Of a stretch of 64,000 nt of DNA, positions 3,099 through 64,000 are shown piece after piece. This DNA comes from an uncultured Bacteroidaceae bacterium (lineage in GTDB: Bacteria; Bacteroidota; Bacteroidia; Bacteroidales; Bacteroidaceae). Each line of letters starts with the position of its first letter. The first letter of the stretch is position 1. The stretch covers positions 4,951 through 68,950 of the forward strand of contig CAJOEI010000025.1 of the NCBI GenBank assembly GCA_905233465.1, given 5' to 3'. The notes under the pieces were generated by a model. That model did no database searches. It was not told the DNA's origin and saw only the letters and a program-made list of their open reading frames with translations. The translations under genes and the position numbers were made by a program.

Positions 3099-3125
3099 GG
3101 CTTTGAGACACGAGCAAAGCTCGTA

Positions 3126-3217
3126 GTTTAAAGTTTAAGGTTTAAAGGGAAGTCCATTGAACATTGAACATTGTGAATTATGCATTGTAAATTGTAAATT
3201 GTCAAATTGTAAATTAA
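3126..3217. repeat. mosaic tract with 7-bp periodicity, 13 units
   Basis: The tract reads gtttaaa gtttaag gtttaaa, then a 7-nt gap, then ccattga acattga acattgt gaattat gcattgt aaattgt aaattgt caaattgt aaattaa. It fills the spacer between the tex stop and the start of the membrane-protein gene. Confidence 0.9.
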
Positions 3218-10973: not shown

Positions 10974-11542
10974 CGACAGAAGAGCAGTTCCGGGCGGTGA
11001 TGAGCGAATGCCGCTCCGTATTTCAGGCCAAGTTGCACGATTACGGAGCGGCATGGCGTATTCTGCGAGTGACATCACTCACCGATCAGCTATACATCAA
11101 GGCCAACCGCATCCGCTCGTTAGAGTTGAAGGGCGAGGCGCTTGTAGCTGAGGGCATCCGGCCCGAGTTCGTGGCTATAGTGAACTATGCCATTATCGGT
11201 CTGATACAATTGGCTCATGGTTTTGCCGAGCAACCCGATGATATGACGCCCGAACAGGCTCTGGCAGAGTACGACACGCTCGCCGAAGAGTCGTTGCAGC
11301 TGATGTTGCGCAAGAATCACGACTATGACGAGGCTTGGCGAGGAATGCGTGTGAGTAGCTACACCGACCTGATATTGCAGAAGATATTCCGCACCAAACA
11401 GATAGAGGAACTGGGCGGGGTGACGCTGCAGAGCGAGGGCATCGATGCCAATTACATGGATATGATGAACTATGCTGTCTTCGGCCTCATCAAACTCACC
11501 TATGGGGATGCGGCCTCGCCTCAGTTGAAAGTTGAAAGTTGA
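10970..11542 (+). CDS. DUF1599 domain-containing protein (two repeats)
   Basis: KLHDYGAAWRILRVTSLTDQLYIKANRIRSLE recurs as KNHDYDEAWRGMRVSSYTDLILQKIFRTKQIE. The last codons (PQLKVES) and the stop lie inside the GTTGAAA tract. Confidence 0.7.
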   Translation: MTTEEQFRAVMSECRSVFQAKLHDYGAAWRILRVTSLTDQLYIKANRIRSLELKGEALVAEGIRPEFVAIVNYAIIGLIQLAHGFAEQPDDMTPEQALAEYDTLAEESLQLMLRKNHDYDEAWRGMRVSSYTDLILQKIFRTKQIEELGGVTLQSEGIDANYMDMMNYAVFGLIKLTYGDAASPQLKVES

Positions 11543-11579
11543 GAGTTGAAAGTTGAAAGCGGAAAGATGAAAGTTTCAA
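11524..11579. repeat. 7-bp tandem tract (GTTGAAA)n
   Basis: The tract reads gttgaaa gttgaaa gttgaga gttgaaa gttgaaa gcggaaa gatgaaa gtttcaa. It contains both the stop of the DUF1599 gene (11540-11542) and the ATG of the next gene (11567). Confidence 0.9.
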
Positions 11580-12733
11580 CAAGATGGATAGTGGTGAACA
11601 CGTGCCGCCTGCTCGTGTCCGCCATTTTTATTTTATCGGGATTGGTGAAGCTCATCGACCCCCACGGCACAGAATATAAGATTGAGGACTATCTTGTCGC
11701 AATGGGTCTGGACGGCGTGTTGGTGCAACCCTTGCCGCTGTTCTTTGCCGTAGGTATGGCGTTGCTGGAGTTTTGTTTAGGCATTTACCTGTTGTTCGGC
11801 ATACGTCGTCGTCTGACCACCCGCACCATACTGGCCTTTATGCTTGTCTACACGCCGCTGACGCTGTGGCTTGCGCTGACGGATGCTGTGGCGGATTGCG
11901 GCTGTTTCGGTGACGCTCTTGTGCTCACCAACTGGCAGACGTTTGGCAAGAATGTCTGTTTGCTGGCTGCTGCTGTGTTGCTATGTCGCACACGTGCTTG
12001 GCAGACGCGCCTCATCTCGGAGAGCGCGCAGTGGCTGATATCGATATACTCCGTTGTATATGGATTGGCTCTGGCGCTGCTGTGTCTGTGGGGCGAGCCC
12101 GTGATAGACTTCAGACCATTTCATGTCGGACAGGACATTGCTGCAGCGATGGAGTGGCCTGATGATGGGGAGGGGCAGCCTGAAATCCTTGATTTCAGCT
12201 TCGAACCCATAGCGGGACTTGACAATGCGTGCGATGTGAGGGCGGATGATGTGCTTGCCGACAAGGGATATACCTTCCTGCTCATTGCTCCGTATCTTGA
12301 GAGCGCTGACGACGGCAACATGGATCGCATCAATGCCATCGCTGATTACGCTGACGAATATGGTTATCGTTTCCTTTGCCTGACAGCCTCCGACAGCGTA
12401 GCCATACGTCGCTGGCAGGACCTTACAGGCGCCGACTATGCCTTTGCTTTTGCCGACGAGCTGATGCTGAAGACTATTGTTCGCAGCAATCCCGGTCTGA
12501 TGCTTCTGCGCGGAGGCGTTGTGATGGGCAAGTGGAGCCACAACACGCTGCCTGCGCCTGCCGAGCTCACAGCACCGCTGCACTCTCTCGCGTTGGCACA
12601 TCCCCAGCCCGGCAGCTATCGTAGGATGTTGCTCGCGCTACTGCTGTGGTATGTCGTGCCGCTGGTGCTGCTCACGCTGCTGGACCGCCTCGTGGCAGTT
12701 GTACGATGGCAACGGAGAAAGGCAAATTCATAA
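11567..12733 (+). CDS. DoxX/MauE-like membrane protein with C-terminal soluble domain (BT_3928-like)
   Basis: The N-terminus RLLVSAIFILSGLVKLIDPHGTEYKIEDY is followed by 4-5 TM helices. Its position after a DUF1599 gene is typical of Bacteroidota. The track start at 11546 is TTG inside the repeat, so ATG 11567 is preferred. Confidence 0.6.
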   Translation: MKVSTRWIVVNTCRLLVSAIFILSGLVKLIDPHGTEYKIEDYLVAMGLDGVLVQPLPLFFAVGMALLEFCLGIYLLFGIRRRLTTRTILAFMLVYTPLTLWLALTDAVADCGCFGDALVLTNWQTFGKNVCLLAAAVLLCRTRAWQTRLISESAQWLISIYSVVYGLALALLCLWGEPVIDFRPFHVGQDIAAAMEWPDDGEGQPEILDFSFEPIAGLDNACDVRADDVLADKGYTFLLIAPYLESADDGNMDRINAIADYADEYGYRFLCLTASDSVAIRRWQDLTGADYAFAFADELMLKTIVRSNPGLMLLRGGVVMGKWSHNTLPAPAELTAPLHSLALAHPQPGSYRRMLLALLLWYVVPLVLLTLLDRLVAVVRWQRRKANS

Positions 12734-12763
12734 TTCGCTCACAATTCATAATTCACAATTCGA
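12725..12763. repeat. 7-bp tandem tract (AATTCAY)
   Basis: The tract reads aattcat aattcgc (tcac) aattcat aattcac aattcga. The TAA stop of the upstream gene (12731-12733) lies in the tract. Confidence 0.85.
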
Positions 12764-12766
12764 ACC

Positions 12767-12796
12767 ACTTTCAACTTTCAACTGCGGCATAGCCGC
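12767..12796 (+). promoter_or_regulatory. leader element copy 1: (ACTTTCA)2-ACT-GCGGC-ATA-GCCGC
   Basis: The heptamer pair and a 5-bp GC hairpin end 9 nt before the ansA ATG (12806). The same architecture is seen at 17182-17224 (-), 22295-22324 and 22902-22944. Confidence 0.7.
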
Positions 12797-12805
12797 GTTA
12801 GAATT

Positions 12806-13855
12806 ATGAAACGAACAGGACGTGTTTTGCTCATATATACTGGTGGCACAATAGGTATGGCCGCCGACCGTGAGACTGGTGCGCTGACGCCTTTGGATTT
12901 CAATCATCTCATAGCATGCATGCCAGAGTTCAAGGCTGTGCCGACGGGCATCGACGTCCATCAGTTTCCGCAGCCCATCGACAGCAGCGACATGAACCCG
13001 CAGCTGTGGCGGCGCATAGTTGAAATCATTGCTGGCCTCTATGACAACTACGACGGCTTTGTCATCCTTCATGGCACAGACACTATGGCCTTCACCGCAG
13101 CAGCTCTGAGCTTCATGCTCGAGAACCTCACAAAACCCGTTGTGCTCACTGGCTCACAGCTGCCCATTGGACGTCTGCGTACCGACGGGCGCGAGAACCT
13201 GCTCACGAGCATCGAGATAGCTGCTGCTCATCACCCCGACGGCCGGCCGCGTGTGCCGGAGGTGTGCATATATTTCAGCGGCAAGCTGCTGCGCGGCAAC
13301 CGTTCCACGAAGATAAACAGCGAGGGCTTCAACGCCTTCGACACATTTAACTATCCTCATCTGGCAGATGCGGGAGTGGACATCCGCTACCACGATGAGT
13401 ATATCCTGCAGCCGCGCTTCGATGAGCCCATGACACCGCATTTCGCTATGGATGCGAGCGTGATGGTCTTTACCCTCTTCCCTGGCATTCAAGAGAATAT
13501 GGTGCGTCATCTGCTGCACACACCAGGTCTGCGTGGCATCGTGATGCGCACTTATGGTAGCGGCAACGCCCCGCAGCAGCCTTGGCTGATGGAGGCGTTG
13601 AAGGAAGCCACGCAGCGCGGAGTGGTGATCATCAATATCACCCAGTGTGCTGCCGGCCCTGTGGAGATGGCGCGCTACTCAGGTGGCTTCTTGTTGCAGA
13701 ACGTCGGCGTGCTGTCGGGTTACGATGCCACCGTGGAATGTGCCGTAGCCAAGCTGATGCACCTCTTTGGCAGTCAGACTGATGTAGACAACATCCGCCA
13801 GCAGATGACACATGCCATCTGCGGTGAGATAACGGTTGTTACTGAGCCATGTTAG
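12806..13855 (+). CDS. ansA: L-asparaginase, type I
   Basis: Contains VLLIYTGGTIGM (catalytic Thr motif) and ILHGTDTMAFTAAALSF. Length is 349 aa. Confidence 0.88.
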   Translation: MKRTGRVLLIYTGGTIGMAADRETGALTPLDFNHLIACMPEFKAVPTGIDVHQFPQPIDSSDMNPQLWRRIVEIIAGLYDNYDGFVILHGTDTMAFTAAALSFMLENLTKPVVLTGSQLPIGRLRTDGRENLLTSIEIAAAHHPDGRPRVPEVCIYFSGKLLRGNRSTKINSEGFNAFDTFNYPHLADAGVDIRYHDEYILQPRFDEPMTPHFAMDASVMVFTLFPGIQENMVRHLLHTPGLRGIVMRTYGSGNAPQQPWLMEALKEATQRGVVIINITQCAAGPVEMARYSGGFLLQNVGVLSGYDATVECAVAKLMHLFGSQTDVDNIRQQMTHAICGEITVVTEPC

Positions 13856-13985: not shown

Positions 13986-14018
13986 GATTTGCATATTTTT
14001 GCCCAGTCGTTTGGCTTT

Positions 14019-14128
14019 GTCCACGAACGCGGACGATATTGTCCACGACCACGGACGAAATAGTCCACGAACGTGTACGAAATAGTCCACGACCGCGGAC
14101 GATATTGTCCACGAACGTGGACAAATAG
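14019..14128. repeat. five tandem 22-bp repeats, each with a GTCCACG-AM-CGYGGAC palindromic core
   Basis: The units are gtccacgaacgcggacgatatt / gtccacgaccacggacgaaata / gtccacgaacgtgtacgaaata / gtccacgaccgcggacgatatt / gtccacgaacgtggacaaatag. They are head to tail with no spacers. ACGA recurs every 11 bp. Confidence 0.9.
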
Positions 14129-14210
14129 AATCATCCGGTCGATACACAAGAAACCACTGGTGGAATCAGTAGGAACCAACGGATGAATGGTTCGACAGCT
14201 CACCATAAAT

Positions 14211-14246
14211 CAACTTTCAACTTTCAATTTTCAATTTTCAACTTTC
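14211..14246. repeat. 7-bp tandem tract (CAACTTT/CAATTTT) abutting a start codon
   Basis: The tract reads caacttt caacttt caatttt caatttt caacttt c, followed directly by ATG 14247. Confidence 0.9.
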
Positions 14247-16358
14247 ATGAGCTTAATCCGTAATCTCATGGTCCTCTGTGGCTTAAGTCTGCTCGGGCTG
14301 GTGCCTGTTCAGTCTGAAAACGACTTTGGCAATCTGCGCCGCTATGCTTCTGACAACGCCCGCGTACGTGAACTGCCGCAGGAGCAGCGGCGCGCTGTGT
14401 TCATCGGCAACAGCATCACCGAGGGATGGCGTAACCAACGTCCCGACTTCTTTCAGAAGAACGGCTACATAGGCCGCGGCATCAGCGGACAGACATCCTA
14501 TCAGTTTGTGGTGCGTTTCCGCGCTGATGTCATAGAGCTGAAGCCGCAGGTGGTGGTCATCAACGTCGCAACAAACGATGTCGCAGAAAACACCTGCCCC
14601 TACAACGAAGACCGCACCTTCGCAAACATCGAGTCGATGGTGGAACAGGCATTAGCCAGCGACATCAAGGTCATCCTCACCACCACTTTGCCCGCCGCAC
14701 GTTTCGGTTGGAACCCCGACATCAAGGACGCCCCCGCCAAGATTGAGAGCCTCAACGCCCGCATCCGCGACTATGCTGCCCGCAAGCGACTGACCTTCGT
14801 GGACTACTATAGCCACATGGTTACTGGCGAGGAGAAGGCTCTGAACCCGGCTTATACAAAAGATGGCGTTCACCCCACTGCCGATGGTTACACGGTGATG
14901 GAGTTGCTCATTAAACCGGCTATCGATAGAGTTTTGGGGCTCGACAAGAAAGATGCCCATCAACTCAGCTTTGCCGAGCGCATAGCCACACCGGCCGACA
15001 ACACACGCGTCACGCGCCGCCCTGTCGAGGGCGAGCGGCTGTTCCGTTCTGACGTCATCGAGCGTAAGATACAAGAGGTCAAGCAGCTGCTTACGGGAGC
15101 GCCTTATCTGGCATGGATGTTCGAGAACTGCTTCCCCAACACGCTCGACACCACTGTCCACTACCAGACCACGGAGGACGGCGACGACGATACCTTTGTC
15201 TATACCGGTGACATCCATGCCATGTGGTTGCGCGACAGTGGTGCGCAGGTGTGGCCCTATGTGCAGTTTGCACGTGAGGACGAAGGGGTGCGCAAGATGG
15301 TGCGTGGCACCATACTACGTCAGCTCAAGTGCATCTGCCTCGACCCCTATGCCAACGCTTTCAATATGGGACCGACGGGCAGCGATTGGGCCAGCGACCT
15401 GACGGATATGACACCCTGGCTGCACGAGCGTAAGTATGAGATTGACTCGCTCTGCTATCCCTTGCGCCTGGCCTACCACTACTGGATAGTGACGGGCGAC
15501 GACAGCATCTTCAGAACGGAACTGTGGAGTAACGCCCTCCGCGCCATACTGAAAACCTTCCGCGAACAGCAGCGCAAGACCAACCACGGCCCCTACCACT
15601 TCCAGCGCCGCACGGCAGCGCAGTATGACACCATGAGTCACAATGGCTACGGCAACCCCATCCGTCCCTGCGGACTCATCGCTTCCGCCTTCCGTCCGAG
15701 CGATGACTGTACGGTGCTGCTCTACCTCGTTCCCTCCAACTTCATGGCCGTATCCAACCTGCGTCGCGCTGCCGACATCCTCACTCGTGTGACAGGTGAC
15801 GCTGCAATGGCAAAGGAGTGTACGGATTTGGCCGATGAGGTGGCAGAAGCGCTGAAGAAATACGCAGTATACAGGCACCCGAAGTATGGCAAAATCTATG
15901 CCTATGAGGTCGATGGTTTCGGCAATCATCTGCTCATGGATGATGCCAATGTGCCATCGCTGCTCGCAATGGCCTATCTTGGCGACGTCTCGCCCAAAGA
16001 CCCGATTTATAAGAACACGCGCCGCTTCGTGCTCAGCGAGGACAATCCTTACTTCTTCCGCGGCAAGGCAGGCGAGGGCATAGGTGGTCCGCACGTGGGC
16101 TATGACATGGTGTGGCCGATGTCTATCATGATGCGCGCCTTCACCTCCACCGATGATGCCGAGATACGTCGCTGTCTGCAAATGCTTGTTGACACCGACG
16201 CTGGCACTGGCTTCATCCACGAGTCGTTCCACAAGGATGACGCATCACGCTATACCCGTTCGTGGTTCGCCTGGCAGAACACGCTCTTCGGAGAACTCAT
16301 CATCAAACTGATTGACGACGGCAAGCTCGACTTGCTCAACTCCATACAGAAAAGTTGA
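14247..16358 (+). CDS. fusion protein: N-terminal SGNH/GDSL hydrolase plus C-terminal GH125 (DUF1237) exo-alpha-1,6-mannosidase-like domain
   Basis: Signal peptide MSLIRNLMVLCGLSLLGLVPVQS. SGNH blocks are FIGNSITEGW, GISGQTS, ATNDV and DGVHPT. The GH125-like motif is FVYTGDIHAMWLRDSGAQVWPY. The track start at 14187 would translate the repeat tract, so ATG 14247 is preferred. Confidence 0.75.
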   Translation: MSLIRNLMVLCGLSLLGLVPVQSENDFGNLRRYASDNARVRELPQEQRRAVFIGNSITEGWRNQRPDFFQKNGYIGRGISGQTSYQFVVRFRADVIELKPQVVVINVATNDVAENTCPYNEDRTFANIESMVEQALASDIKVILTTTLPAARFGWNPDIKDAPAKIESLNARIRDYAARKRLTFVDYYSHMVTGEEKALNPAYTKDGVHPTADGYTVMELLIKPAIDRVLGLDKKDAHQLSFAERIATPADNTRVTRRPVEGERLFRSDVIERKIQEVKQLLTGAPYLAWMFENCFPNTLDTTVHYQTTEDGDDDTFVYTGDIHAMWLRDSGAQVWPYVQFAREDEGVRKMVRGTILRQLKCICLDPYANAFNMGPTGSDWASDLTDMTPWLHERKYEIDSLCYPLRLAYHYWIVTGDDSIFRTELWSNALRAILKTFREQQRKTNHGPYHFQRRTAAQYDTMSHNGYGNPIRPCGLIASAFRPSDDCTVLLYLVPSNFMAVSNLRRAADILTRVTGDAAMAKECTDLADEVAEALKKYAVYRHPKYGKIYAYEVDGFGNHLLMDDANVPSLLAMAYLGDVSPKDPIYKNTRRFVLSEDNPYFFRGKAGEGIGGPHVGYDMVWPMSIMMRAFTSTDDAEIRRCLQMLVDTDAGTGFIHESFHKDDASRYTRSWFAWQNTLFGELIIKLIDDGKLDLLNSIQKS

Positions 16359-16427
16359 AAGTTGAAAGTTCTTTCTGAGGAAAGCGACCAAAGGTCGAGC
16401 GGAAAGATCAAAGTTCAATGTTCAATG
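16354..16427. repeat. 7-bp periodic tract (GTTGAAA ... AAAGTTC AATGTTC)
   Basis: gttgaaa gttgaaa contains the stop codon at 16356-16358. This is followed by agcggaaagatcaaagttcaatgttcaatgggg. The string agcggaaagatNaaagtt also occurs at 11558-11575. Confidence 0.8.
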
Positions 16428-17169: not shown

Positions 17170-17181
17170 GGGAAGTGAGAC

Positions 17182-17224
17182 GCGGCTAAGCCGCAGTTGA
17201 AGGTTTAGAGTTTAAAGTTGAAAG
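17182..17224 (-). promoter_or_regulatory. leader element copy 2 (minus-strand orientation)
   Basis: The minus strand reads actttca actttaa actctaa accttca act GCGGC tta GCCGC gtctcacttccc ATG. The hairpin ends 12 nt before the nitroreductase start (17169). The tract begins at the stop of the SDR gene (17229). Confidence 0.7.
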
Positions 17225-17228
17225 TTAA

Positions 17229-18041
17229 TCACATCGCGAAGGCATTGAAGCCGCCATCAACCACAGCCACTGTGCCAGTCACGAAGCGTGAGGCATCGGA
17301 GATGAGGTAATGGATAGTGCCGCAGAGCTCTTCAGGGTCACCCATGCGTCCGAACGGGGTCTGACGAATCACATCCTGACCGCGCTGGGTGTAACTTCCG
17401 TCGGGGTTCGTCAGCAGCGAGCGGTTCTGCTCTGTGATGAAGAATCCGGGAGCTATGGCGTTCACGCGGATGCCCTCGCCGAACTTCTTGGCGCACTCGG
17501 TGGCCATATAAGCGGTGAAGTTGCTGATTCCGGCCTTCGCAGCGGCGTAACCGCAGACGCGGGTCATCGGACGGAAGGCAGCCATCGACGAGAAATTCAC
17601 GATAGCGCCCTTTCCCTGCTTCACCATCGGCTTCAGGAACACCTGTGTAGGGATAACGGTGCCCGTCAGGTTCAGGTTCAGCACAGTCTGGAACTGAGCG
17701 GGGTCGAGGTCGAAGAAGGTCTTGTCGGGGGCGATGGTCGCTCCGGGCATATTACCGCCGGCAGCGTTCAGCAGCGCATCCACACGGCCGTACTTGGCCA
17801 GGATGGCATCGCAGTTCTCCTGCAACTTTTCCTGACTCATCACATCCGTTTCCATGAAACAGGCTTCTCCGCCAGCTGCCACGATGTCGGCCACAATAGC
17901 CTCACCCACAGCAGCCTTACGACCGAGAATTACCACTTTTGCGCCTTCAGCAGCAAGATATTTGGCGATGGCGCGACCCAGCACGCCTGTGCCGCCAGTT
18001 ATGACCACGACGTGGTCTTTGATATCAAATAAATTACTCAT
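17229..18041 (-). CDS. uxuB: SDR family oxidoreductase, likely D-mannonate oxidoreductase
   Basis: Contains VVVITGGTGVLGRAIAKYLA and a YAAAK catalytic motif. The call rests partly on its position next to uxuA, the MFS gene and uxaC. Confidence 0.65.
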   Translation of the reverse strand: MSNLFDIKDHVVVITGGTGVLGRAIAKYLAAEGAKVVILGRKAAVGEAIVADIVAAGGEACFMETDVMSQEKLQENCDAILAKYGRVDALLNAAGGNMPGATIAPDKTFFDLDPAQFQTVLNLNLTGTVIPTQVFLKPMVKQGKGAIVNFSSMAAFRPMTRVCGYAAAKAGISNFTAYMATECAKKFGEGIRVNAIAPGFFITEQNRSLLTNPDGSYTQRGQDVIRQTPFGRMGDPEELCGTIHYLISDASRFVTGTVAVVDGGFNAFAM

Positions 18042-19261: not shown

Positions 19262-20704
19262 TTATATTTTTTTATAACGTGGCACAAGGGTCTTGATGCA
19301 CGCCCATGCTATGAGATAGGCTACTGCACAGTAGCAGAAGATGATCATGTAGCCGGCAGGTTTGCCCGTGGCACCAAAGAAGCGGAAAGCCTCGCCCTGA
19401 GCATCGGCATAGGTGAAGAGCATTCCGGAACATTTATTGATGGCAAAGCAGCAGAGGCCGCCGAACATTGTACCAATACCCGTGATGGTGGCTATCGCAG
19501 ATTTTGGAAACATATCTCCAATAGTAGAATAGAGGTTGGCAGACCACGCCTGATGACCAGCGCCAGCCAGCCCGATGATTATACAAGGCCACCAGGGAGA
19601 GATGCCAGCCAAGGGCTGGGCAAACATCGCAAAGATGGGAAGGAAAGCAAAGATCAACATCGCTCGCATACGTCCGGCATAAGGATTCATGCCCCAGTGC
19701 TCCACGAAGAGTTTCGGCAGATAGCCGCCGAGGATGCTGAGCAATGTGACGATGAGATAGAGCACAAAGATCAAAGCCTGTCCCATGCCCGAAGAAGATG
19801 GGTAACCGAGTTCGGAGAAATAGGCGGGCGCCCAGAAAAGGAAGAACCACCATACGCCATCGGTCATCAGCTTACCCACGACGAAAGCCCACGTCTGACG
19901 ATAGCGGAAACACTGAACAAACGACAGGGTGGGTTCTGTCTCTTCGTCTGAAGTCTTGAGCTGTGATGCCTCGTCTGGCTGATTGATATAGGCCAACTCT
20001 GCAGCATTGACGAAGCGACTTTTGGAAGGCGACGTATAGAATGCCTGCCACAAACCGGCCCAGATGAATCCGATACCGCCGATGATAATGAAAGCCCATT
20101 CCCAACCGAAATACTCTGCCAGAAGAGGAATCGTAAGGGGCGCGACAAGGGCTCCGACCGAAGCGCCGGCATTAAAGATGGAAGTGGCGTAAGCACGGTC
20201 TTTCTTGGGGAAGTACTCAGCCGTCACCTTGATTGCAGCGGGGAAGTTGCCCGACTCACCCGTAGCCAAAATAATTCGGCAAGCCAAGAAAAGCCAGACG
20301 CTAGTGGTGGAAACCATGAGAGCCATTTCGGAACCTTTCTCCACAGCGTAGAGGGCATCGGTATCTGCGAGGCCTGTAAGCTTTAGCGTAGCCCAACCGC
20401 ACGCTGCATGAAGGCAGGCGCCAACGGACCAAATGACGATAGCCCAGATATAGCCCCTCTTTGTTCCCAGCCAATCAATGAACCGGCCGGCAAACAATGA
20501 GATAAAGGCATAGAAGATGGAGAAAACGGCCGTGATGTTGCCATAGTCGTTGTCATTCCAGTGAAACTCAGGCGCGATAAAGTCTTTCCACGTCAGCGAC
20601 AGCACTTGTCGGTCGAGATAATTCACTGTTGTGGCGACGAAAAGCAATGAACATATCCACCAACGCCAATTTGATTTACTATTTGACGATTTACTATTTA
20701 CCAT
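19262..20704 (-). CDS. MFS transporter, hexuronate (ExuT-like)
   Basis: About 12 TM segments. WRWWICSLLFVATTVNYLDRQVLSL resembles the ExuT N-terminus. The first 12 codons (MVNSKSSNSKSN) are encoded by a 7/8-bp tandem tract. Confidence 0.8.
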   Translation of the reverse strand: MVNSKSSNSKSNWRWWICSLLFVATTVNYLDRQVLSLTWKDFIAPEFHWNDNDYGNITAVFSIFYAFISLFAGRFIDWLGTKRGYIWAIVIWSVGACLHAACGWATLKLTGLADTDALYAVEKGSEMALMVSTTSVWLFLACRIILATGESGNFPAAIKVTAEYFPKKDRAYATSIFNAGASVGALVAPLTIPLLAEYFGWEWAFIIIGGIGFIWAGLWQAFYTSPSKSRFVNAAELAYINQPDEASQLKTSDEETEPTLSFVQCFRYRQTWAFVVGKLMTDGVWWFFLFWAPAYFSELGYPSSSGMGQALIFVLYLIVTLLSILGGYLPKLFVEHWGMNPYAGRMRAMLIFAFLPIFAMFAQPLAGISPWWPCIIIGLAGAGHQAWSANLYSTIGDMFPKSAIATITGIGTMFGGLCCFAINKCSGMLFTYADAQGEAFRFFGATGKPAGYMIIFCYCAVAYLIAWACIKTLVPRYKKI

Positions 20705-20710
20705 TTGTTA
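20668..20710. repeat. 7/8-bp tandem tract covering the start codon and N-terminus of the MFS gene
   Basis: The minus strand reads ATG gtaaata gtaaatc gtcaaata gtaaatc aaattgg. Confidence 0.8.
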
Positions 20711-20735: not shown

Positions 20736-22184
20736 CTACATTTTACAATCTACATTAAAATAATGCTTTGCATTATTGTATGATATATCTTCCACCATTT
20801 GTCGAACACGCTGTTTCTCATAGCCGATGAAAGGTATGAGACCTTGCTCGACATCATTGCCGATGAGGTTGCACAGCACACGGCGGAAATACTCATGGCG
20901 CGGGTAGGACAAGAATGAACGGCTGTCGGTGAGCATACCCACAAAGCGGCTCAGGAGCCCCAGCACAGAGAGAGCATTCAACTGACGTTCCATGCCGTCT
21001 TTCTGGTCCAGGAACCACCAGCCTGAACCCCACTGTATCTTGCCTGCCACACTGCCATCCTGAAAGTTGCCAAGCATAGTAGCCACCATCTCGTTGTCAG
21101 CAGGATTGAGGTTATATAGAATGGTCTTTGCCAGATGGCCCTCGCTGTCCAGCAAGTCGAGGAAACGCGACATCGAATTTGCTGTTTGCCACTGGCCTAT
21201 GCTATCATAACCCGTGTCCGGTCCAATGGACGAGAACATACGGCTGTTGTTGTTGCGCATCGCACCATAGTGGTACTGCTGTACCCAACCGGACGCGTAG
21301 TCCTGCACAGCGAAGATATACAGCATGGCACTCTTGAACTTGCGGACTTCTTCCGCATCAGCCGAACCGCCATTAATTAGCTGTCCGAAGATGCGTTCTA
21401 TCTCTGTGTCGGAATATGGCTCTGAATAGAACTCCTCAAGGCCGTGGTCGCTGAGACGGCAGCCACGAGCGTGGAAGAAGTCGTGACGACGCTGCAGGGC
21501 ATCAATGAAGTCAGAGAACGTGCGAATATCAATATCTGCAACGTTGCCCAACTTTGTCACGTAGGCCCTCCAAGCATCAGCATTCTCCACAGCCATGGCC
21601 TTGTCGGGACGCCACGCAGGCAACATTTTCGTCATTTGACAATTTGACGTTTTACGATTTACGATTTCTTCTGCATAAGCAGAATGATACCTCAAATCAT
21701 CTACAGGGTCGTCTGTGGTGCATACCACTTCCACATTATAGTGTCGCATGAGGCCACGGGCAGAGAAGCGGAGGTCGTGCTGCAGGCGGTCGTTGCATGT
21801 GTCGTAAATCTCACGTGCGGTGTCTGGGTTGAGGCGTTTGTCTATGCCGAAGGCTGTTTTCAGCTCCAGATGTGTCCAGTGATACAATGGATTGCGAAAA
21901 CAGTAAGGCACTGTGGCAGCCCACGCCTGGAACTTCTCCCAGTCGGAGGCGTCGCCGGTGATGAAGCGCTCGTCTACGCCGTTGGTACGCATGGCACGCC
22001 ATTTATAGTGGTCACCGCCCAACCACAACTCGGTAATGCTGCTAAATCGGTGATCTTCTGCCACGAGCTTGGGGTCGAGGTGACAGTGATAGTCTATGAT
22101 TGGCTGCGTAGCAGCATGATGATGATATAGGTCCTGGGCTGTGGTGCTCTGCAACAGGAAGTTCTGGTCAAGGAATGGAGTCAT
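20736..22184 (-). CDS. uxaC: glucuronate isomerase
   Basis: Contains IIDYHCHLDPK, GDHYKWRAMRTNGV, NPLYHWTHLELK, WVQQYHYGAMRNNN and GMLTDSRSFLSYPRHEYFRR. Confidence 0.92.
   Translation of the reverse strand: MTPFLDQNFLLQSTTAQDLYHHHAATQPIIDYHCHLDPKLVAEDHRFSSITELWLGGDHYKWRAMRTNGVDERFITGDASDWEKFQAWAATVPYCFRNPLYHWTHLELKTAFGIDKRLNPDTAREIYDTCNDRLQHDLRFSARGLMRHYNVEVVCTTDDPVDDLRYHSAYAEEIVNRKTSNCQMTKMLPAWRPDKAMAVENADAWRAYVTKLGNVADIDIRTFSDFIDALQRRHDFFHARGCRLSDHGLEEFYSEPYSDTEIERIFGQLINGGSADAEEVRKFKSAMLYIFAVQDYASGWVQQYHYGAMRNNNSRMFSSIGPDTGYDSIGQWQTANSMSRFLDLLDSEGHLAKTILYNLNPADNEMVATMLGNFQDGSVAGKIQWGSGWWFLDQKDGMERQLNALSVLGLLSRFVGMLTDSRSFLSYPRHEYFRRVLCNLIGNDVEQGLIPFIGYEKQRVRQMVEDISYNNAKHYFNVDCKM
21633..21668. 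repeat. 7/8-bp tandem tract inside uxaC
   Basis: The tract reads catttgac aatttgac gttttac gatttac gatttc. It is translated on the minus strand as EIVNRKTSNCQM. Confidence 0.8.
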
Positions 22185-22192
22185 TATTATAT

Positions 22193-22260
22193 GATTTTAC
22201 GATTTCACGATTTCACGAATTTTACAATTTTTTTGAGGTTGAGAGTTGCGGATTGATTAC
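22193..22260. repeat. 8-bp tract (GATTTYAC)n followed by a weaker 7-bp tract
   Basis: The tract reads gattttac gatttcac gatttcac gaattttac, then ttgaggt tgagagt tgcggat tgattac. It begins 9 nt upstream of the uxaC start. Confidence 0.8.
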
Positions 22261-22267
22261 TTTTTCA

Positions 22268-22275
22268 TATTTTTG
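22268..22275 (+). promoter_or_regulatory. candidate -7 box TATTTTTG for ORF 22335
   Basis: Matches TAnnTTTG. This places the downstream heptamer/hairpin element in the 5' UTR. Confidence 0.45.
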
Positions 22276-22294
22276 CGGCAGCATTGTGAATAAT

Positions 22295-22324
22295 ACTTTC
22301 AACTTTCAACTGCGGCTTCGCCGC
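22295..22324 (+). promoter_or_regulatory. leader element copy 3: (ACTTTCA)2-ACT-GCGGC-TTC-GCCGC
   Basis: The hairpin ends 10 nt before ATG 22335. Confidence 0.7.
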
Positions 22325-22334
22325 GTCCTAAGAT

Positions 22335-22857: not shown

Positions 22858-22896
22858 ATTTTACGATTTCACGATTTTACGATTTTACGGTTTTCG
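22858..22896. repeat. 8-bp tandem tract (ATTTTACG)n
   Basis: The tract reads attttacg atttcacg attttacg attttacg gttttcg. It belongs to the same unit family as 22193-22225 and 21633-21668. Confidence 0.85.
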
Positions 22897-22901
22897 ATTG
22901 G

Positions 22902-22944
22902 CTTTAAACTTTAAACCTTAAACTTTCAACTGCGGCTTCGCCGC
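22902..22944 (+). repeat. leader-element copy 4: (CTTTAAA)3-CTTTCAA-CT-GCGGC-TTC-GCCGC
   Basis: Same architecture as copies 1-3. Here it overlaps the 3' end of folB on the opposite strand and supplies its last 8 codons and stop. Confidence 0.7.
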
Positions 22945-23316
22945 GTCTATGGCGCAGCCACGTTGGATTTCGACGCTGAAGCCTGCGCCATCGCAGTCGA
23001 TGCCCATGGGGGGATTGAGTTTGGTGATTTCCAGATGTATGGTCTGGGCCAACGGCAGTTGGTCGAAGAGTGCCTGGCAGATGCGGCCTGCAACGTGCTC
23101 GAGTAGTGCCGAGGGCTGTGCCATCTGTGTGCGTATGATGTCGGCTACATCGGCATAGGATATGGTGTCTGCGAGGGCGTCGCTGTGCATGGCGGCCTGC
23201 AGCTGTCCATCGATGCGCACGTTGACAACGAAGTCCGCTCCCACGGTGTGTTCCTGCGGCATCACGCCGTGATGGGCGCGGATGCGCATGTTGCGTATGA
23301 AGATTGATGTTACCAT
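22918..23316 (-). CDS. folB: dihydroneopterin aldolase
   Basis: Contains IRNMRIRAHHGVMPQEHTVGADFVVNV, TISYADVADII and IHLEITKLNPPMG. The C-terminal tail (...AAKPQLKV) is repeat-encoded. Confidence 0.82.
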   Translation of the reverse strand: MVTSIFIRNMRIRAHHGVMPQEHTVGADFVVNVRIDGQLQAAMHSDALADTISYADVADIIRTQMAQPSALLEHVAGRICQALFDQLPLAQTIHLEITKLNPPMGIDCDGAGFSVEIQRGCAIDAAKPQLKV

Positions 23317-32573: not shown

Positions 32574-32673
32574 AGTTAGTTATGTTTTTATAAGGTTTGA
32601 AAAAAGTTGAAAGTCAAGCAGGTGACGACATCCATCGTTTACAAGCTCAACTTTCAACCATATATTGTCAATA

Positions 32674-45593: not shown

Positions 45594-45630
45594 TAATTGT
45601 CCCCATAGACCGCGTCTATGGGGACAATTA
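45594..45630. terminator. bidirectional terminator hairpin between convergent genes
   Basis: TAATTGTCCCCATAGAC-CGC-GTCTATGGGGACAATTA is a perfect 17-bp stem with a 3-nt loop. Confidence 0.75.
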
Positions 45631-50633: not shown

Positions 50634-50663
50634 GTTCCCGCCTCATTGCAGTGAAGCGGGAAC
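50634..50663 (-). terminator. attenuator terminator upstream of pheA
   Basis: The minus strand reads GTTCCCGC-N14-GCGGGAAC (8-bp stem) followed by TTTGTTTAAGTTT. The last U of the run lies about 18 nt upstream of the pheA ATG (hairpin base about 37 nt upstream). Confidence 0.7.
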
Positions 50664-50705
50664 CTGATATTATCAATTGTCAATTTCCAATTATCAATTG
50701 TACAC
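50664..50705. repeat. 7-bp tandem tract (TATCAAT/TGTCAAT/TTCCAAT) inside the pheA leader
   Basis: The tract reads ctgatat tatcaat tgtcaat ttccaat tatcaat tgtacac. It forms the loop between the antiterminator strands. Confidence 0.85.
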
Positions 50706-57769: not shown

Positions 57770-57849
57770 ACGAATTATACGAATTATACGAATATTGTAT
57801 ATGCGTATTTAGTCTGCGCTTATAGATTCGTATAATTCGTATAATTCGT
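57770..57849. repeat. perfect 24-bp inverted repeat built from tandem 9-mers (CGAATTATA), with a 32-nt spacer
   Basis: acgaattatacgaattatacgaat (57770-57793) is the exact reverse complement of attcgtataattcgtataattcgt (57826-57849). It lies 45 nt after the leuA stop. Confidence 0.9.
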
Positions 57850-58025
57850 AGCATAAAGATAATGTCTGCATTTTGACATAGCGCTAATTTGCTGTTGTTT
57901 TGCTCCACAAGCCTGCATGAACCGTTAACAATAGTTAAAACATCGTGCGCGTGCAACGTGCGTATTCTATTATTTGCTTACTTTGTAGCCATAACTAACT
58001 ATAAACCATAAAAAACCTCTATTAT

Positions 58026-61000
58026 ATGAAACGAATACTACTATTCCTGTTCGTTGTCGTCACCTCGGCAATGGCGATGGCAGAGGTCATAACACCAGAG
58101 CAGGCACTGGAGCAAGCTCAGAGCTTCATCTCCAAGAGAGAGGCTGACGGCACCAGGCCTCGCCGTGCCCCGGGCACAGCCGCTTCGCGCCTGACAATGA
58201 CCGGCCAAATTAGCGGACTGTATGTCTTCAACGTAGCTGCCGACGGCGGCTTTGTCATCGTCAGCAACGACGACAGCACACGGCCTATTCTCGGATATTC
58301 CGACAGCGGCAACATCGACATCAACAACATCCCGCAAAACATGCGTGCATGGCTGCAGGGCTATGCCGACGAGATAGCGTGGGCACAGAAGCATCCGACA
58401 CAGCAGACGTCACAGCAGCTGAAGAAGGCCCCGCGACGCATCGGTACACACAGCACCACAGCCATCGAGCCGCTGGTGAAGTCGACGTGGAATCAGGGCG
58501 AACCGTTTAACAACCTATGTCCAACTTACGACGGCAGCAACAAATCTGCCACGGGATGTGTTGCCACAGCAATGGCACAGGTGATGAACTACCACGAGTG
58601 GCCAACGGCAGCCACGCAGTCCATCCCAGGATACACAACAGACAGCCATCAGCTTAGCTTGTCATCGTTAGACCCCGTCACCTTCGACTGGAACAATATG
58701 CTTGATAGCTATCCAGATAATGGATACAACGACACGCAAGCCACAGCCGTAGCTACGCTGCTGCAATATTGCGGCTGGTCCGTCCAGATGGACTATGGGC
58801 CGGAATCGGGCGCAACGACATCTGCAGTGGCGGATGCACTAATAGCCTATTTCGACTACAACTCCAACACCACGCAGTGTGTCATTCGTAGCTTCTACAC
58901 CTATGCCAAGTGGACCGACCTCATCTACCATGAGCTGTCGCAGAACCGTCCTGTGGTATATGGTGGCTCGTCTTCAGGCGGCGGACACGAGTTTGTATGC
59001 GACGGATACAAGTATGAGAACGAGACTGACTTCTTCCACATCAACTGGGGATGGGGCGGCATGAGCGACGAATACTTTGTCCTGTCAGCCCTTGACCCCG
59101 ACCAGCAGGGCATCGGCGGCAGCACCTCCAACGACGGCTTCCACTACGGTCAGGATGCTGTCATAGGCATTCAGCCATCAACAGGCACAGGCACTGTGGC
59201 CAACATCACACCTAATACAATCAAGCTGGCTATGACCAGCATGACACTGAGCAGCAATACCACCTATGTGGGCTTCCCTGTGGATGTCACACTCAGCATC
59301 AAAAACAATAGCTCGGATGACTACGATGGAGACATCTATTTGGGATTGAAATTATCAAAAGGATATAGTCTTGCTGAAGGCAACAACTTCTCCATCCCGG
59401 CTGGAGAGACAAGAGACTGTACCTTCTCATTCAATCCATCAGAAGCAGGCTCCTATGACTTCGTGTTCTTCTTCCCCAATGTTTACGGCTCATATTCTAC
59501 TAATGGCGAAGTTGGAGCTACACTGACTGTAGAACAACCCAGCGGTCTCACCGTGTACGACGGAACAGATGAAAGCCAGGAAGTTCCGGCATACATTTTT
59601 TACTTTGATGAATACACAAGAAGTCAGTTTGTCATTCCAGCGAGCGACTTGACAGCCATGAACGGCAACATAATCAATGCTTTGGTGTTTTATACAACAG
59701 CTGACAACACCCCTTGTACCACGATGTGCCCGGTAGATGTCTATGTGAAGGAGGTGGACTACACCTCTATCAACGCTTTTGAGACAAAGGAGAGTTCAAC
59801 TATCGTCTACCAAGGTAAACTTACCATCCTTCGGTCGGGCTCTGGCGGTGTGCTCACCATACCGCTAACAACCCCTTACGCCTACGGCGGAGGCAATCTG
59901 ATGATAGGCATAGAGAACACCACAGACGATGGCTTTGATGACATCACCTTCTTGGGTCAGACGGTTAATGGGGCCTCTGTTGCCGGCAGTGCAAGCAGTC
60001 TGGCCGGTGTGTATCCAACACAGCAGAACTTCATACCAAAGACATTGTTCATGCATGAGCCTCCTGCCATTGAAATGCCATCCACGCTCACAGCTACCAA
60101 CGTGACCACAAGCGGGGCCACGCTGACCTGGTCGGGCGGCACGGGAAAGTATAATGTGGAATACAAGAAGGTCAGTGATGCAGATTGGACAGTACTCCTC
60201 AGCAACACGACACAGCTCACCTACACCTTTACGAATCTTGATATCTACACCGATTATCAGGCCCGCGTGCAGTCGGTGGATGCCAGCGATGCCACAAGCC
60301 ATTGGAGAACCATAGACTTCTCCACACCTCTGGCGGATGACATGTGTCAGATATCCTTGAAACTGACAGACGGCTATGGTGACGGTTGGAACGACGCAGC
60401 CATACAAGTGGTAGATGTCCTGACCAGCACACTTTTGGGGACATTCGCTAACACCAGTGCGGCAGGTAAGGGCGAAGCACAAACATACTACGCAGCAGTG
60501 CCCAATGACAGAGACATTCAGTTCCAGTGGGTAGCAGGAAGCTATGACAGCGAATGTTCATACGTGGTATATGATGTGAATGGAGATGAGATATTCTCTG
60601 GCAGCGGCGCCATGAATTCATCATTCACCCATCACGTAAACTGCAACGCCATATCCAAACCGAAGGACCTGCTCGTCAGCAACGTGAACGCCAACGCTGC
60701 TACCATCACGTGGACGGGCACCGCTGACAGCTATGAACTGCGCTACAGGGTCGCATCAGGTTTCCGCTATGGCTTCGAGACGGCAGAGCCGTGGGCTGTG
60801 GATGACTTCCCACCATGTAGCACTTACGACGGCGATGGTACGCAGACATACACTTTCAGCGGATGGTCCTTCACAAACCAAGGCTATACCGGTGCATGCA
60901 TTGCTTTCAATAATGATAATAATAGTAGCGGAAGCATGGTATCTCACAGCGGCAACGCCTTCGGCATGATGATGAATCCAAATAGCGGCGCTGCCAACGA

Positions 61001-62449: not shown

Positions 62450-62926
62450 ATGGTAGGAGAACAGGACAAAGATTTCATGCGTCAGGCTATACGTCTGGCC
62501 GATGACAATGTGGACCACGGCGGCGGTCCCTTCGGTGCCGTCATAGTAAAAGACGGCGAGGTGATTGCAGGAGGATGCAACAGAGTGGTGCCCAATAACG
62601 ACCCCACGGCACACGCCGAAGTCAGCGCCATACGCGAGGCATGCAACAAACTCGGCACATTCGACCTCTCGGGTTGCACCATCTACACCTCATGTGAGCC
62701 TTGCCCCATGTGCCTCGGCGCCATATACTGGGCACGCATAGGACGTATCTATTATGGAAACACGCGATATGATGCACGCGACATCAACTTCGCCGATGAC
62801 TTCATATACGAGGAGATGGATCGCCCGATAGAGCAACGTCAACTGCCCATCATACCCCTCCTGCGCGAAGAAGCCATCCACACCTTCCGCAAGTGGGCAG
62901 AGAAAGAAGACAAAACTGAATATTAA
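62450..62926 (+). CDS. CMP/dCMP-type zinc deaminase (guanine deaminase / nucleoside deaminase-like)
   Basis: Contains PTAHAEVSAIREAC and SCEPCPMCLGAIYWARI. Length is 158 aa. Confidence 0.8.
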   Translation: MVGEQDKDFMRQAIRLADDNVDHGGGPFGAVIVKDGEVIAGGCNRVVPNNDPTAHAEVSAIREACNKLGTFDLSGCTIYTSCEPCPMCLGAIYWARIGRIYYGNTRYDARDINFADDFIYEEMDRPIEQRQLPIIPLLREEAIHTFRKWAEKEDKTEY

Positions 62927-64000
62927 AGGGGCCACTCCACCGGTGCGAAGCCCCTCTTGATGGACAACTCTGACAACGGCGTGACGGCACACCATACCGC
63001 CATATCACGCACGCCAAAGTCGAGAGGTTTACCTGCAGCGAGCGCTCCTATAAGGCGCTCGTTCATTGTTTGTGTGAGGGCCGAATGCGATTGGCTGCCG
63101 TCGTCGCGCACGGTGATGGTGCCACGTGTTCCCACGATGTGGAACAGACGGTCGTAAGGTTGCGGCGTCAGCACATCGTGACGTAGTATGATGGTGCGTC
63201 CCAGCGCCGTGCGTAGCAATGTTGTCGTGTGGTCGCCGTTGCAGAAGTCAGGTGCCGCCGTGCCCATACGCTGCTCGTAGGCCGACGGGCCCGTGAACGC
63301 CGCCGTATCCATACTCACCAACGTAGTGATGCGATCCTGAGGCCATTGACCATTGACCATTGACCATTGAACATTGTCCATTGAGCATTGCCCATTGTCC
63401 ATTGTCCATTGTCCATTGTCCATTGTCCATTGTCCATTTGTAATTCCCAGCGCCATACATATCGGTGCCAATTCATGGGTCGGATACAGGTCGCCGCGCT
63501 GATGCCGGTTCATCTCCAAACGCCAGGGCGTCCAGCGACCATCAAGAGCATGATAGTATGTACCCTCTGCATGTATCGGCATGCCTATCTCGCCCTCACG
63601 TATCCGCCGTATGGCATCAAGGATGGCAGGGTCGTAGCAGCAGTTCTCAAGCATGAAACAATGACAACCCGTCGTCTCCGAAGTCTCAACCAACGCATTG
63701 ATGTCCTCCAACGTCAGCGCAGCAGGCACCTCCACAGCTACATGCCGCCCCGCACGCATAGCCTCTATAGCCAGACGCGCATGGCTCTGCCAGTCAGTAC
63801 ATATATATGTCAGCTTGACAACGTCGACCATTGACCATTGACCATTGACCATTGATTTATGGTGAGCCTGTCGAACCAATTGTCCATTGTCCATTGTTCT
63901 TTGTGCCGCACGCACCCTCTCCACATCCGTGTCACGCAACGCCGATATACGCACCGGCAGCTTCTCGCCGATGCGCAACAGGCTACGCAACGCCGTCATA
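62923..64000 (-). CDS. Gfo/Idh/MocA family oxidoreductase (GH109-like), 5' end probably outside the window, carrying translated heptamer arrays
   Basis: Contains HARLAIEAMRAGRHVAVEVPAALTLEDINALVETSETTGCHCFMLENCCYDP. The ATG at 63999 is only the most upstream in-window Met. Insert peptides are NGQWTMDNGQWTMDNGQCSMDNVQWSMVNGQW and SMVNGQWSMV. Confidence 0.7.
   Translation of the reverse strand, partial: MTALRSLLRIGEKLPVRISALRDTDVERVRAAQRTMDNGQLVRQAHHKSMVNGQWSMVDVVKLTYICTDWQSHARLAIEAMRAGRHVAVEVPAALTLEDINALVETSETTGCHCFMLENCCYDPAILDAIRRIREGEIGMPIHAEGTYYHALDGRWTPWRLEMNRHQRGDLYPTHELAPICMALGITNGQWTMDNGQWTMDNGQCSMDNVQWSMVNGQWPQDRITTLVSMDTAAFTGPSAYEQRMGTAAPDFCNGDHTTTLLRTALGRTIILRHDVLTPQPYDRLFHIVGTRGTITVRDDGSQSHSALTQTMNERLIGALAAGKPLDFGVRDMAVWCAVTPLSELSIKRGFAPVEWPL
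63343..63440. repeat. 14-unit heptamer array inside the Gfo/Idh/MocA CDS
   Basis: (ccattga)x4 acattgt ccattga gcattgc (ccattgt)x6 ccatttg. Perfect runs are at 63343-63370 and 63392-63433. Confidence 0.92.
63828..63904. repeat. second heptamer array inside the same CDS
   Basis: (ccattga)x4, then a 20-nt gap, then ccaattgt ccattgt ccattgt tctttgt. Confidence 0.9.

Follow-up and report, generated by a model that had tools for sequence, protein, structure and literature searches.

A 21-nt palindromic unit lodged in intergenic tandem arrays of an uncultured Bacteroidaceae bacterium, and its likeness to small mobile repeats

A GC-rich hairpin recurs at the ends of tandem heptamer arrays in a 64,000-nt stretch of DNA from an uncultured Bacteroidaceae bacterium (GenBank assembly GCA_905233465.1, contig CAJOEI010000025.1, positions 4,951 to 68,950; hereafter the window). 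An earlier interpretation made from the letters alone (the sequence-only reading) had described four copies and proposed that hairpin and array form a dedicated leader module close to start codons. Judging from sequence and placement, we put the chances at about even that this hairpin, with its flanks, is a miniature palindromic insertion unit of 21 nt lodged in intergenic tandem arrays, akin to repetitive extragenic palindromes (REPs) and small dispersed repeats (SDRs); the hairpins are unlikely to serve as a dedicated translation switch. The repeat family is real, its arrays are hypervariable, some copies lie antisense over coding sequence, and the orthologous leaders of relatives lack it. 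The core also occurs in other phyla, where one copy cleanly interrupts an array.

A recurrent 21-nt hairpin unit

Patterns were counted on the letters of the window and compared with 100 dinucleotide-preserving shuffles of its 64 kb. The pattern GCGGCNNNGCCGC occurs four times, against 0.13 expected, and none of the 100 shuffles reaches four; the copies lie where the sequence-only reading had placed them. All four exact copies read TCAACT-GCGGC-NNN-GCCGC-GT (21 nt). They share TCAACTGCGGCNNNGCCGCGT and differ only in the loop, so that the invariant part is longer than the GCGGC/GCCGC stem and ACT...GT flanks first described as fixed. The loops are indeed variable (ATA, TTC, TTA and TTC in copies 1 to 4). 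The AC...GT flanks also pair, which yields a 7-bp stem with one bulged T (AC-T-GCGGC / GCCGC-GT) closed by a triloop. A covariance model built on the 21-nt unit (R1), run beside a mismatch-tolerant search, recovered two further members in the window, a decayed fifth copy and a structural variant. The members and one looser relative are as follows.

12778-12798 (+): core of copy 1, loop ATA; GCCGC ends 9 nt before the ansA ATG at 12806
22306-22326 (+): core of copy 2, loop TTC; 10 nt before an ATG at 22335, with a TAnnTTTG match upstream at 22268-22275
17180-17200 (-): core of copy 3, loop TTA; 12 nt before the nitroreductase ATG at 17169
22926-22946 (+): core of copy 4, loop TTC; antisense within the last 9 codons of folB
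11508-11528 (-): degenerate fifth copy, TCAACTGAGGCGAGGCCGCAT, found by mismatch search and R1; antisense to both neighbours
3105-3134 (-): structural variant in the frame AAACT...GTCTC with the bulged T kept; stem ACGAGC/GCTCGT, loop TTT; R1 score 20.2 bits, E 0.033
16351-16427 (-): looser relative with heptamer arrays on both sides of the hairpin CGACC-TTT-GGTCG (16385-16397), in the convergent GH125/nitroreductase spacer

The spacings of 9, 10 and 12 nt between GCCGC and ATG, and the antisense position of copy 4 in the 3' end of folB, agree with the sequence-only reading. Its count of three sense copies out of four ahead of an ATG also stands and gains a metagenomic copy described below (9-15 nt in all), but the decayed fifth copy is antisense to both neighbours. 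The five copies are confined to 11.5 kb (window positions ~11.5-23 kb) out of the 78 kb seen for the species, that is, the window and an extra 14 kb of flanking sequence. All are singletons; the closest pair lies 620 nt apart in direct orientation, and there are no inverted dimers.

As RNA, the hairpin is predicted to fold with -8.6 to -9.1 kcal/mol; the leaders, otherwise unstructured, contain no other stable structure, and whole-leader folding z-scores show nothing remarkable. The alignment contains one compensatory pair and one inserted pair, both in the 3105-3134 variant, a count that 51 of 500 shuffles equal or exceed, and covariation support for an RNA structure is negligible. The unit has no G-U pairs or other RNA-specific signatures.

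The same 21-mer in other phyla

Scans for the exact core covered the GTDB species genomes and metagenomes. The former gave 105 matches, nearly all of them chance occurrences within coding sequence of GC-rich genomes. Among the metagenome matches listed, most were likewise chance occurrences in GC-rich coding sequence. A handful of matches from the two scans were intergenic, beside tandem arrays of unrelated units. The copies beside arrays are these.

Contig L055, 5187-5270, and at least seven metagenome contigs: Fibrobacter; beside CTAACCA units; shares loop ATA and tail GTTA with copy 1
Contig L200: metagenome contig of 43 % GC; AATTCCT units; sense, 15 nt ahead of an ATG served by a separate Shine-Dalgarno sequence, AGGAG
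Contig L229: metagenome contig; TCTCTCA units; exact core, antisense
Contig L028: Binatia metagenome-assembled genome; 9-mer units; exact core, antisense
Contig L215: Verrucomicrobiota/Opitutales metagenome-assembled genome; the unit interrupts an octamer array

At L215, deletion of 21 nt restores GTGCAAAG-GTGCAAAA-GTGCAAAG exactly and leaves a perfect (GTGCAAAR)3, with 7 of 8 junction-spanning positions matching. At copy 3 in the window, a 21-nt deletion leaves in-phase heptamers, still starting AC, up to the ATG. By these matches, the 21-mer is present in at least two, and probably three, phyla beyond Bacteroidota (Fibrobacterota, Verrucomicrobiota and probably Binatia). No start codon follows the copies in Fibrobacter, L215, L229 and L028.

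The Fibrobacter element is found at the edge of 1370 nt that take the place of 32 nt in sister strains, an indel rather than a bare unit. It belongs to an 81-nt convergent spacer (the element plus a degenerate CTAACCA array) that is 100 % identical in 8 contigs, while the flanking genes diverge by 10-40 %. This spacer follows a conserved 37-residue signal-peptide open reading frame (ORF) ending ...MVHGA*.

Searches for a known carrier or RNA family were negative. Against Rfam, at the gathering threshold and at E values up to 5, only a tRNA reaches gathering and nothing overlaps the element; viral contigs gave 3 matches, all at chance level. When the element was compared by BLAST with plasmids, phages and every complete Escherichia coli genome, partial chance matches or none came back, which gives no hint that a plasmid or phage carries it or that it derives from a universally conserved RNA.

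Arrays fill the spacers, and some end in hairpins

The intergenic spacers of the window are packed with tandem arrays whose units are 7 nt, sometimes 8-9 nt, long. Many unit types coexist (ACTTTCA, CTTTAAA, ATTGTAA, CATTGAA, AATTCAY, ATTTACG, 13.7 copies of CCATTGT, and others), and together they occupy 12 % of the bases between genes, compared with 0.7 % of those in ORFs. Arrays also exist without a hairpin, in both orientations and even within ORFs; ACTTTCA-type arrays in the opposite orientation lie at 11523-11575 and 16351-16370. Most intergenic triloop hairpins (6 of about 8) touch an array, against 0 of 57 in ORFs, copy 4 excepted. The polarity is fixed, with the array always on the ACT side and the GT side toward the nearest gene boundary, and every hairpin forms the gene-proximal end of an array. 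The arrays concerned, and one without a hairpin, are listed here.

12725-12783 (+): arrays 5' of copy 1; (AATTCAY)n overlapping the MauE/DoxX stop codon, then (ACTTTCA)2.4
22193-22311 (+): left composite, at copy 2; (GATTTCAC)4.6 octamer array, a 64-nt spacer, then (ACTTTCA)2.4; homologous to the right composite
22858-22931 (+): right composite, at copy 4; (ATTTTACG)5.4, then (CTTTAAA)4.3
17195-17226 (-): heptamer array of copy 3; 4 units, beginning 3 nt past the stop of a short-chain dehydrogenase gene (17229-18041, -)
11523-11575 (-): array of the fifth copy, (TTCAACT)7.6 = (AGTTGAA)7.6, extending into the MauE/DoxX start region
3125-3215 (-): arrays of CTTTAAA, TTCAATG and TTACAAT that precede the 3105-3134 variant on its strand
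14210-14247 (+): hairpin-less (TCAACTT)5.4 array abutting the likely GH125 ATG at 14246

Together with their octamer arrays, copies 2 and 4 form a direct repeat of 25 and 27 identical bases that brackets an ORF of 172 codons, for which no Pfam match was found.

Arrays are also found with a stop codon on one side and a canonical terminator (long stem, T run) on the other, at 50640-50699 (-) and at ~4540-4680 of contig L241, which makes an array followed by a hairpin a general layout of 3' spacers in the clade, beyond the 21-mer.

Strain variation and relatives

Four contigs from ENA metagenome assemblies, ~99.9 % identical to the window and 56 kb in total, allowed a comparison of near-identical strains. 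They differ from the window by a few dozen substitutions and only two indels, both of whole heptamer units: the copy-3 array is 14 nt (2 units) longer in strain L106, and the (CCATTGT)13.7 array is 28 nt (4 units) shorter in strain L239. Since the only indels are whole array units, the arrays are hypermutable. The heptamer number of 2-4 that had been reported thus holds in the window as a snapshot; the copy-3 array has 4 units there and 6 in L106.

A GFO/IDH/MocA-GH109-like ORF (62923-63999, -) contains in-frame heptamer arrays at 63343-63438, 63826-63855 and 63879-63897. The (CCATTGT)13.7 array is read there as a 32-residue (TMDNGQW)n insert, and its shortening by four units in L239 splits the ORF in two, in the manner of a phase-variable contingency gene. 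Strain L239 also differs from the window by 12 substitutions within 55 nt (58517-58571, in a C10 peptidase gene), the remaining 11.5 kb being identical, which looks like a small recombination or a variable patch.

The best protein matches of the window are to Bacteroidaceae or Prevotella metagenome-assembled genomes, which places it in that group, and it stems from a rumen or gut bacterium. The nearest relatives share ~80-92 % protein identity and little synteny with the window. The ansA leaders of three of them (AnsA identity 92, 89 and 81 %) are ordinary and lack the hairpin element. The covariance-model search that had been suggested for related genomes, which recovered the variant and the decayed copy in the window, found no further members in ~190 kb of related and Fibrobacter loci. 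Relatives do carry arrays of the kinds seen here and comparable modules. In L259, a (CAACTTT)6 array forms the UxaC leader and an (AGTTGAA)9 array lies ahead of uxuA; in L108, an analogous module, (TTCTTCA)n-CT-GCTGC-CCG-GCAGC, lies within the 3' end of an antisense gene. A further region of L259 (3782-3892) consists of 3.4 copies of a 32-34-nt unit made up of three heptamers and a GGGC-GAA-GCCC mini-hairpin. GAA triloops of the GCGAAGC type are exceptionally stable as DNA; the opposite strand of copies 2 and 4 contains GCGAAGC. A heptamer-periodic stretch within uxaC (protein ...EEIVNRKTSNCQMTKM...) occupies the same position in three species (window 21642-21667, L259 10506-10539, L262 ~965-1000), which indicates that some arrays are old and tolerated in coding sequence.

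Gene context and transcription

The genes on either side of copies 1 and 3 run in the same direction and leave no space for a promoter, nor is there a promoter-like box; both copies must therefore be transcribed. Copy 2 lies in a divergent spacer, downstream of the TAnnTTTG match. At two sites the element forms the end of a protein: the FolB terminus ...AAKPQLKV* is read from the reverse complement of copy 4, and the terminus ...AASPQLKVES* of a DUF1599 protein from that of the fifth copy. The homology of FolB to Pfam and to PDB 1dhn ends at residue 115 of 132.

Across the family, 8 of 12 members are sense to local transcription, which is not significant; antisense placement is seen in the fifth copy, in the exact cores of L229 and L028, and in the comparable module of L108. 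In six of eight sense members the array begins 0-17 nt past the stop of a co-oriented upstream gene. The genes downstream of the hairpins are functionally unrelated. A terminator scan flagged none of the hairpins, and no T run follows the stems; an intrinsic terminator, for which a GC stem without a T/U tract does not suffice, was ruled out. The gene dnaA lies ~3-4 kb left of the window (contig L263, 5 kb left of the window start), which places the window beside the probable replication origin. One-sided array growth set by replication direction was rejected as a model, since dnaA is on the left and yet arrays lie on either side of hairpins relative to the fork.

A two-layer model and its alternatives

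The insertion-unit reading is the most economical and would have two layers. Slippage-prone microsatellites of 7-9 nt, ordinary in kind though present in unusual abundance, would fill spacers throughout the clade and occasionally invade gene ends and loops. A separate, dispersed 21-nt palindromic unit would have been inserted or copied into these arrays, several times within the 11.5-kb neighbourhood, and would spread by insertion or templated copying. The spacing of 9-12 nt to the ATG would then be a by-product of short spacers and of arrays that reach start codons, as a hairpin nearer than ~9 nt would intrude on the initiation region. The 3' side keeps fewer than two units, so that only the 5' array would be able to go on slipping. 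Once transcribed, the -9 kcal/mol stem-loop would have at most a secondary, REP-like effect, for example as an exonuclease block or a processing boundary. The sequence-only interpretation is partly supported, by the sense copies 9-15 nt ahead of start codons, by the constancy of the stem beside varying loops, and by the transcription of copies 1 and 3; an RNA-level side effect may exist.

Several observations weigh against this reading. The exact core was found in no other Bacteroidota genome of the GTDB set, and no clean pair of occupied and empty orthologous sites was obtained for any copy in the window, the relatives lacking synteny. No transposase, integrase or HUH (Y1) gene was found in the 78 kb seen. 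The invariant stem and flanks with varying loops could equally reflect selection on structure; three of the window copies keep their distance to the ATG within a span of 4 nt; and two-thirds of the family (8/12) are sense to local transcription. The identity of the Fibrobacter spacer is easier to reconcile with function, or with very recent spread, than with neutral junk.

Some of these points keep two RNA-level alternatives alive, namely the invariant stem and flanks with free loops, the sense majority and the conserved Fibrobacter spacer. One is a REP-like RNA element under selection, in which the heptamer tract would be cut after the upstream stop and the GC hairpin would cap the 5' end of the downstream cistron or block 3' exonucleases upstream, giving neighbouring genes different stabilities. 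RNase E-type enzymes prefer RN/WUU, and each ACUUUCA unit offers AC/UUU. The start of the array 0-17 nt after a co-oriented stop in most sense members, the intercistronic position of copies 1 and 3 without a promoter-like box, and the hairpin as sole stable structure of the leaders all suit this idea, and REPs share such a distribution and are thought to act as RNA (PMC3733652). We nevertheless consider it unlikely, as spacers of the same kind are filled antisense by the decayed copy, by L229 and L028 and by the L108 module, orthologous junctions do not conserve the element, and the unit shows neither G-U pairs nor other RNA-specific signatures, its triloop not being a favoured RNA loop. The other is the module first proposed, a dedicated 5' leader for translation control, ribosome standby or protein binding in a phylum that initiates translation without Shine-Dalgarno pairing. 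The spacing ahead of the ATG (9, 10 and 12 nt in the window, 15 nt in L200), the position of the 3105-3134 variant 11 nt ahead of a possible GTG, the fixed stem and flanks with free loops, and the compensatory and inserted pairs of the variant would all be expected of such a leader. But the downstream genes are unrelated in function, the relatives' ansA leaders lack the element, two of the five window copies are antisense in coding 3' ends, the copies in Fibrobacter, L215, L229 and L028 have no start codon to serve, L200 has its own AGGAG, and the covariation is not significant. A dedicated leader, whether for translation control, an RNA-binding protein or processing, is distinctly unlikely on this evidence.

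Three DNA-level alternatives fare worse. Purely local templated copying, in which replication stalled in (ACTTTCA)n switches template to a hairpin-bearing array and the matches in other phyla are unrelated, would account for five copies within 11.5 kb that share ACTTTCA/CTTTAAA arrays on the 5' side, and for the 27 and 25 nt of flank common to copies 2 and 4. It is improbable in view of L215, where the insert has all 18 fixed bases unchanged and makes a clean break in an octamer array, so that a chance match is not credible, and of Fibrobacter and L200, whose copies agree with copy 1 down to the loop or the GTTA tail. A single-strand recombination site at gene-cassette borders, comparable to integron attC and recognised as a folded hairpin with an extrahelical base, has the bulged T and a suggestive geometry on its side: direct copies 2 and 4 bracket the 172-codon ORF, inverted copies 5 and 1 bracket MauE/DoxX, copy 3 and the 16385 hairpin bracket the nitroreductase gene, and the Fibrobacter element lies at the edge of the 1370-nt segment missing from sister strains. 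With no integrase in the 78 kb, a unit of 21 nt where 57-141 nt are usual for attC, no consistent GTTRRRY core, and a bare insertion without a cassette at L215, it is very improbable. We give the least credence to a double-stranded operator for a dimeric DNA-binding protein, with GCGGC/GCCGC half-sites around a free 3-bp spacer. It would explain invariant arms around a varying centre; the variant, however, preserves the structure and not the arm sequence, the sites are found between cistrons and in the 3' ends of genes, not at promoters, and the neighbouring genes are unrelated.

If the insertion-unit reading is right, very small mobile repeats described so far only in Nostocaceae would extend to gut and rumen Bacteroidota and to other phyla, and would be tied mechanistically to microsatellite arrays; spacers and some gene ends would be remodelled on the time-scale of strain divergence, with new C-terminal tails, the split GH109-like ORF and leaders of variable length as outcomes. 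A bolder version, possible though doubtful, is that the 21-mer is a non-coding "nano-transposon" that targets tandem arrays and has the same bases throughout in Bacteroidota, Fibrobacterota, Verrucomicrobiota and probably Binatia living in the rumen and elsewhere. It would imply a widespread trans-acting activity so far unlinked to such elements, either a hairpin-recognising single-strand nuclease/ligase or template-switch repair, and the unit would seed new heptamer arrays from its own TTCAACT flank. In practice, recurrent hairpins close upstream of Bacteroidota start codons are not necessarily regulatory.

Comparison with known repeat families

The SDRs of Nostocaceae, reportedly described by Elhai et al. 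in 2008 (Genome Res 18:1484) as hairpins nested precisely in other repeats, with no known means of movement, are by description the closest precedent for the 21-nt unit. Further accounts of SDRs are given in PMC4390886, PMC5861425 and PMC3116915, and they have been reported only in Nostocaceae (PMC5861425). Like them, the present unit is a hairpin of ~21-27 nt with conserved flanks and a variable centre. It is also precisely nested in other repeats, including tandem heptamers, as seen where the array is restored (L215) or its phase kept (copy 3). Neither encodes a protein, and a means of movement is known for neither. They differ in that the present unit occurs in Bacteroidota, Fibrobacterota, Verrucomicrobiota and probably Binatia, and in that its copy number looks low and local.

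REPs are small extragenic palindromes found mostly after coding regions, between co-directional or convergent genes, and sometimes in gene ends; a family with 5-bp stems and bulged members are acknowledged (PMC3733652, PMC3116915). With 21 nt, a 7-bp stem, a bulged T and a 3-nt loop, the unit falls within the 20-40-bp palindromic stem-loops so defined, and it too is extragenic, sometimes inside gene ends, and probably transcribed. Its stem and loop are nevertheless shorter than the 8-9 bp and 4-5 nt of REPs, there are no inverted dimers (REPINs) or mosaic clusters and no REP-associated tyrosine transposase (RAYT) in the 78 kb seen, and it is fused to heptamer arrays with fixed polarity. Membership of the GTAG- or CGTC-tagged REPs, as defined in PMC3733652, was rejected because there is no unpaired head tag and the 5' flank reads TCAACT. 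The only CGTC is found where copies 2-4 have their 3' end, its CG being part of the stem.

The flanking arrays have separate precedents. Repeats of the heptamer TAACTGA occur in Beggiatoaceae, cyanobacteria and five Bacteroidetes (PMC4679880), and the same paper relays in outline the long simple sequence repeats (LSSRs) of Mrazek et al. 2007. Like these repeats, the present arrays consist of 7-nt tandem intergenic units concentrated just upstream of starts and change by whole units. As with TAACTGA, several unit types share a spacer, orthologous spacers of close relatives lack them, and slippage has been proposed as their origin. Those reports concern arrays alone, whereas here a GC hairpin caps the array, dozens of unit types coexist, and changes in unit number between near-identical strains are seen directly.

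Intergenic tandem heptamer repeats are also known from cyanobacteria as short tandemly repeated repetitive (STRR) sequences, and the likeness in unit size and position extends to them. The attC sites of integrons are imperfect palindromes of 57-141 nt with RYYYAAC...GTTRRRY cores beside an intI integrase. The resemblance would lie in the mode of working only: recognition of a fold rather than a sequence, an extrahelical base, and a place at the 3' end of single-gene units. Membership was rejected, as the unit has 21 nt, no recombinase lies nearby and GTTA follows the stem only in copy 1, L055 and L200. The L215 copy, a bare insertion into an array, differs from attC as well.

Other repeats and features of the window

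A 22/44-bp tandem repeat (TTGTCCACGAACGCGGACGAAA, five copies, with short palindromes) at 14017-14128 lies upstream of a GDSL-GH125 gene, and a copy 91-96 % similar to it occurs at 17535-17815 of contig L238, upstream of an HU-HIG gene situated ~6 kb beyond the right end of the window; the pair may be a shared regulatory array. The N-terminus of an MFS transporter (MVNSKSSNSKSNW...) is encoded by an (AGTAAAT)n array at 20674-20706 (-), with the start codon apparently inside the repeat. Two inverted 9-mer arrays, (ACGAATTAT)2.7 and (TATAATTCG)3.2, lie 27 nt apart at 57770-57850, in a 300-nt spacer upstream of a large C10 peptidase gene. The AlaDH/AsnA spacer (32605-32660) contains AAAGTTGAAAGT ... 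ACTTTCAAC, an inverted pair of one heptamer unit flanking 34 nt.

Between convergent genes at 45594-45630 lies a perfect palindrome with a 17-bp stem (TAATTGTCCCCATAGAC-CGC-GTCTATGGGGACAATTA), likely a bidirectional terminator; the 12 nt (CCGCGTCTATGG) that it has in common with the 3' flank of copy 4 were judged to be at chance level. At the left end of the window, positions 1-1911 hold the 3' part of a ribonucleotide reductase gene (-), and a tRNA-Arg(CCG) gene lies at 2130-2202.

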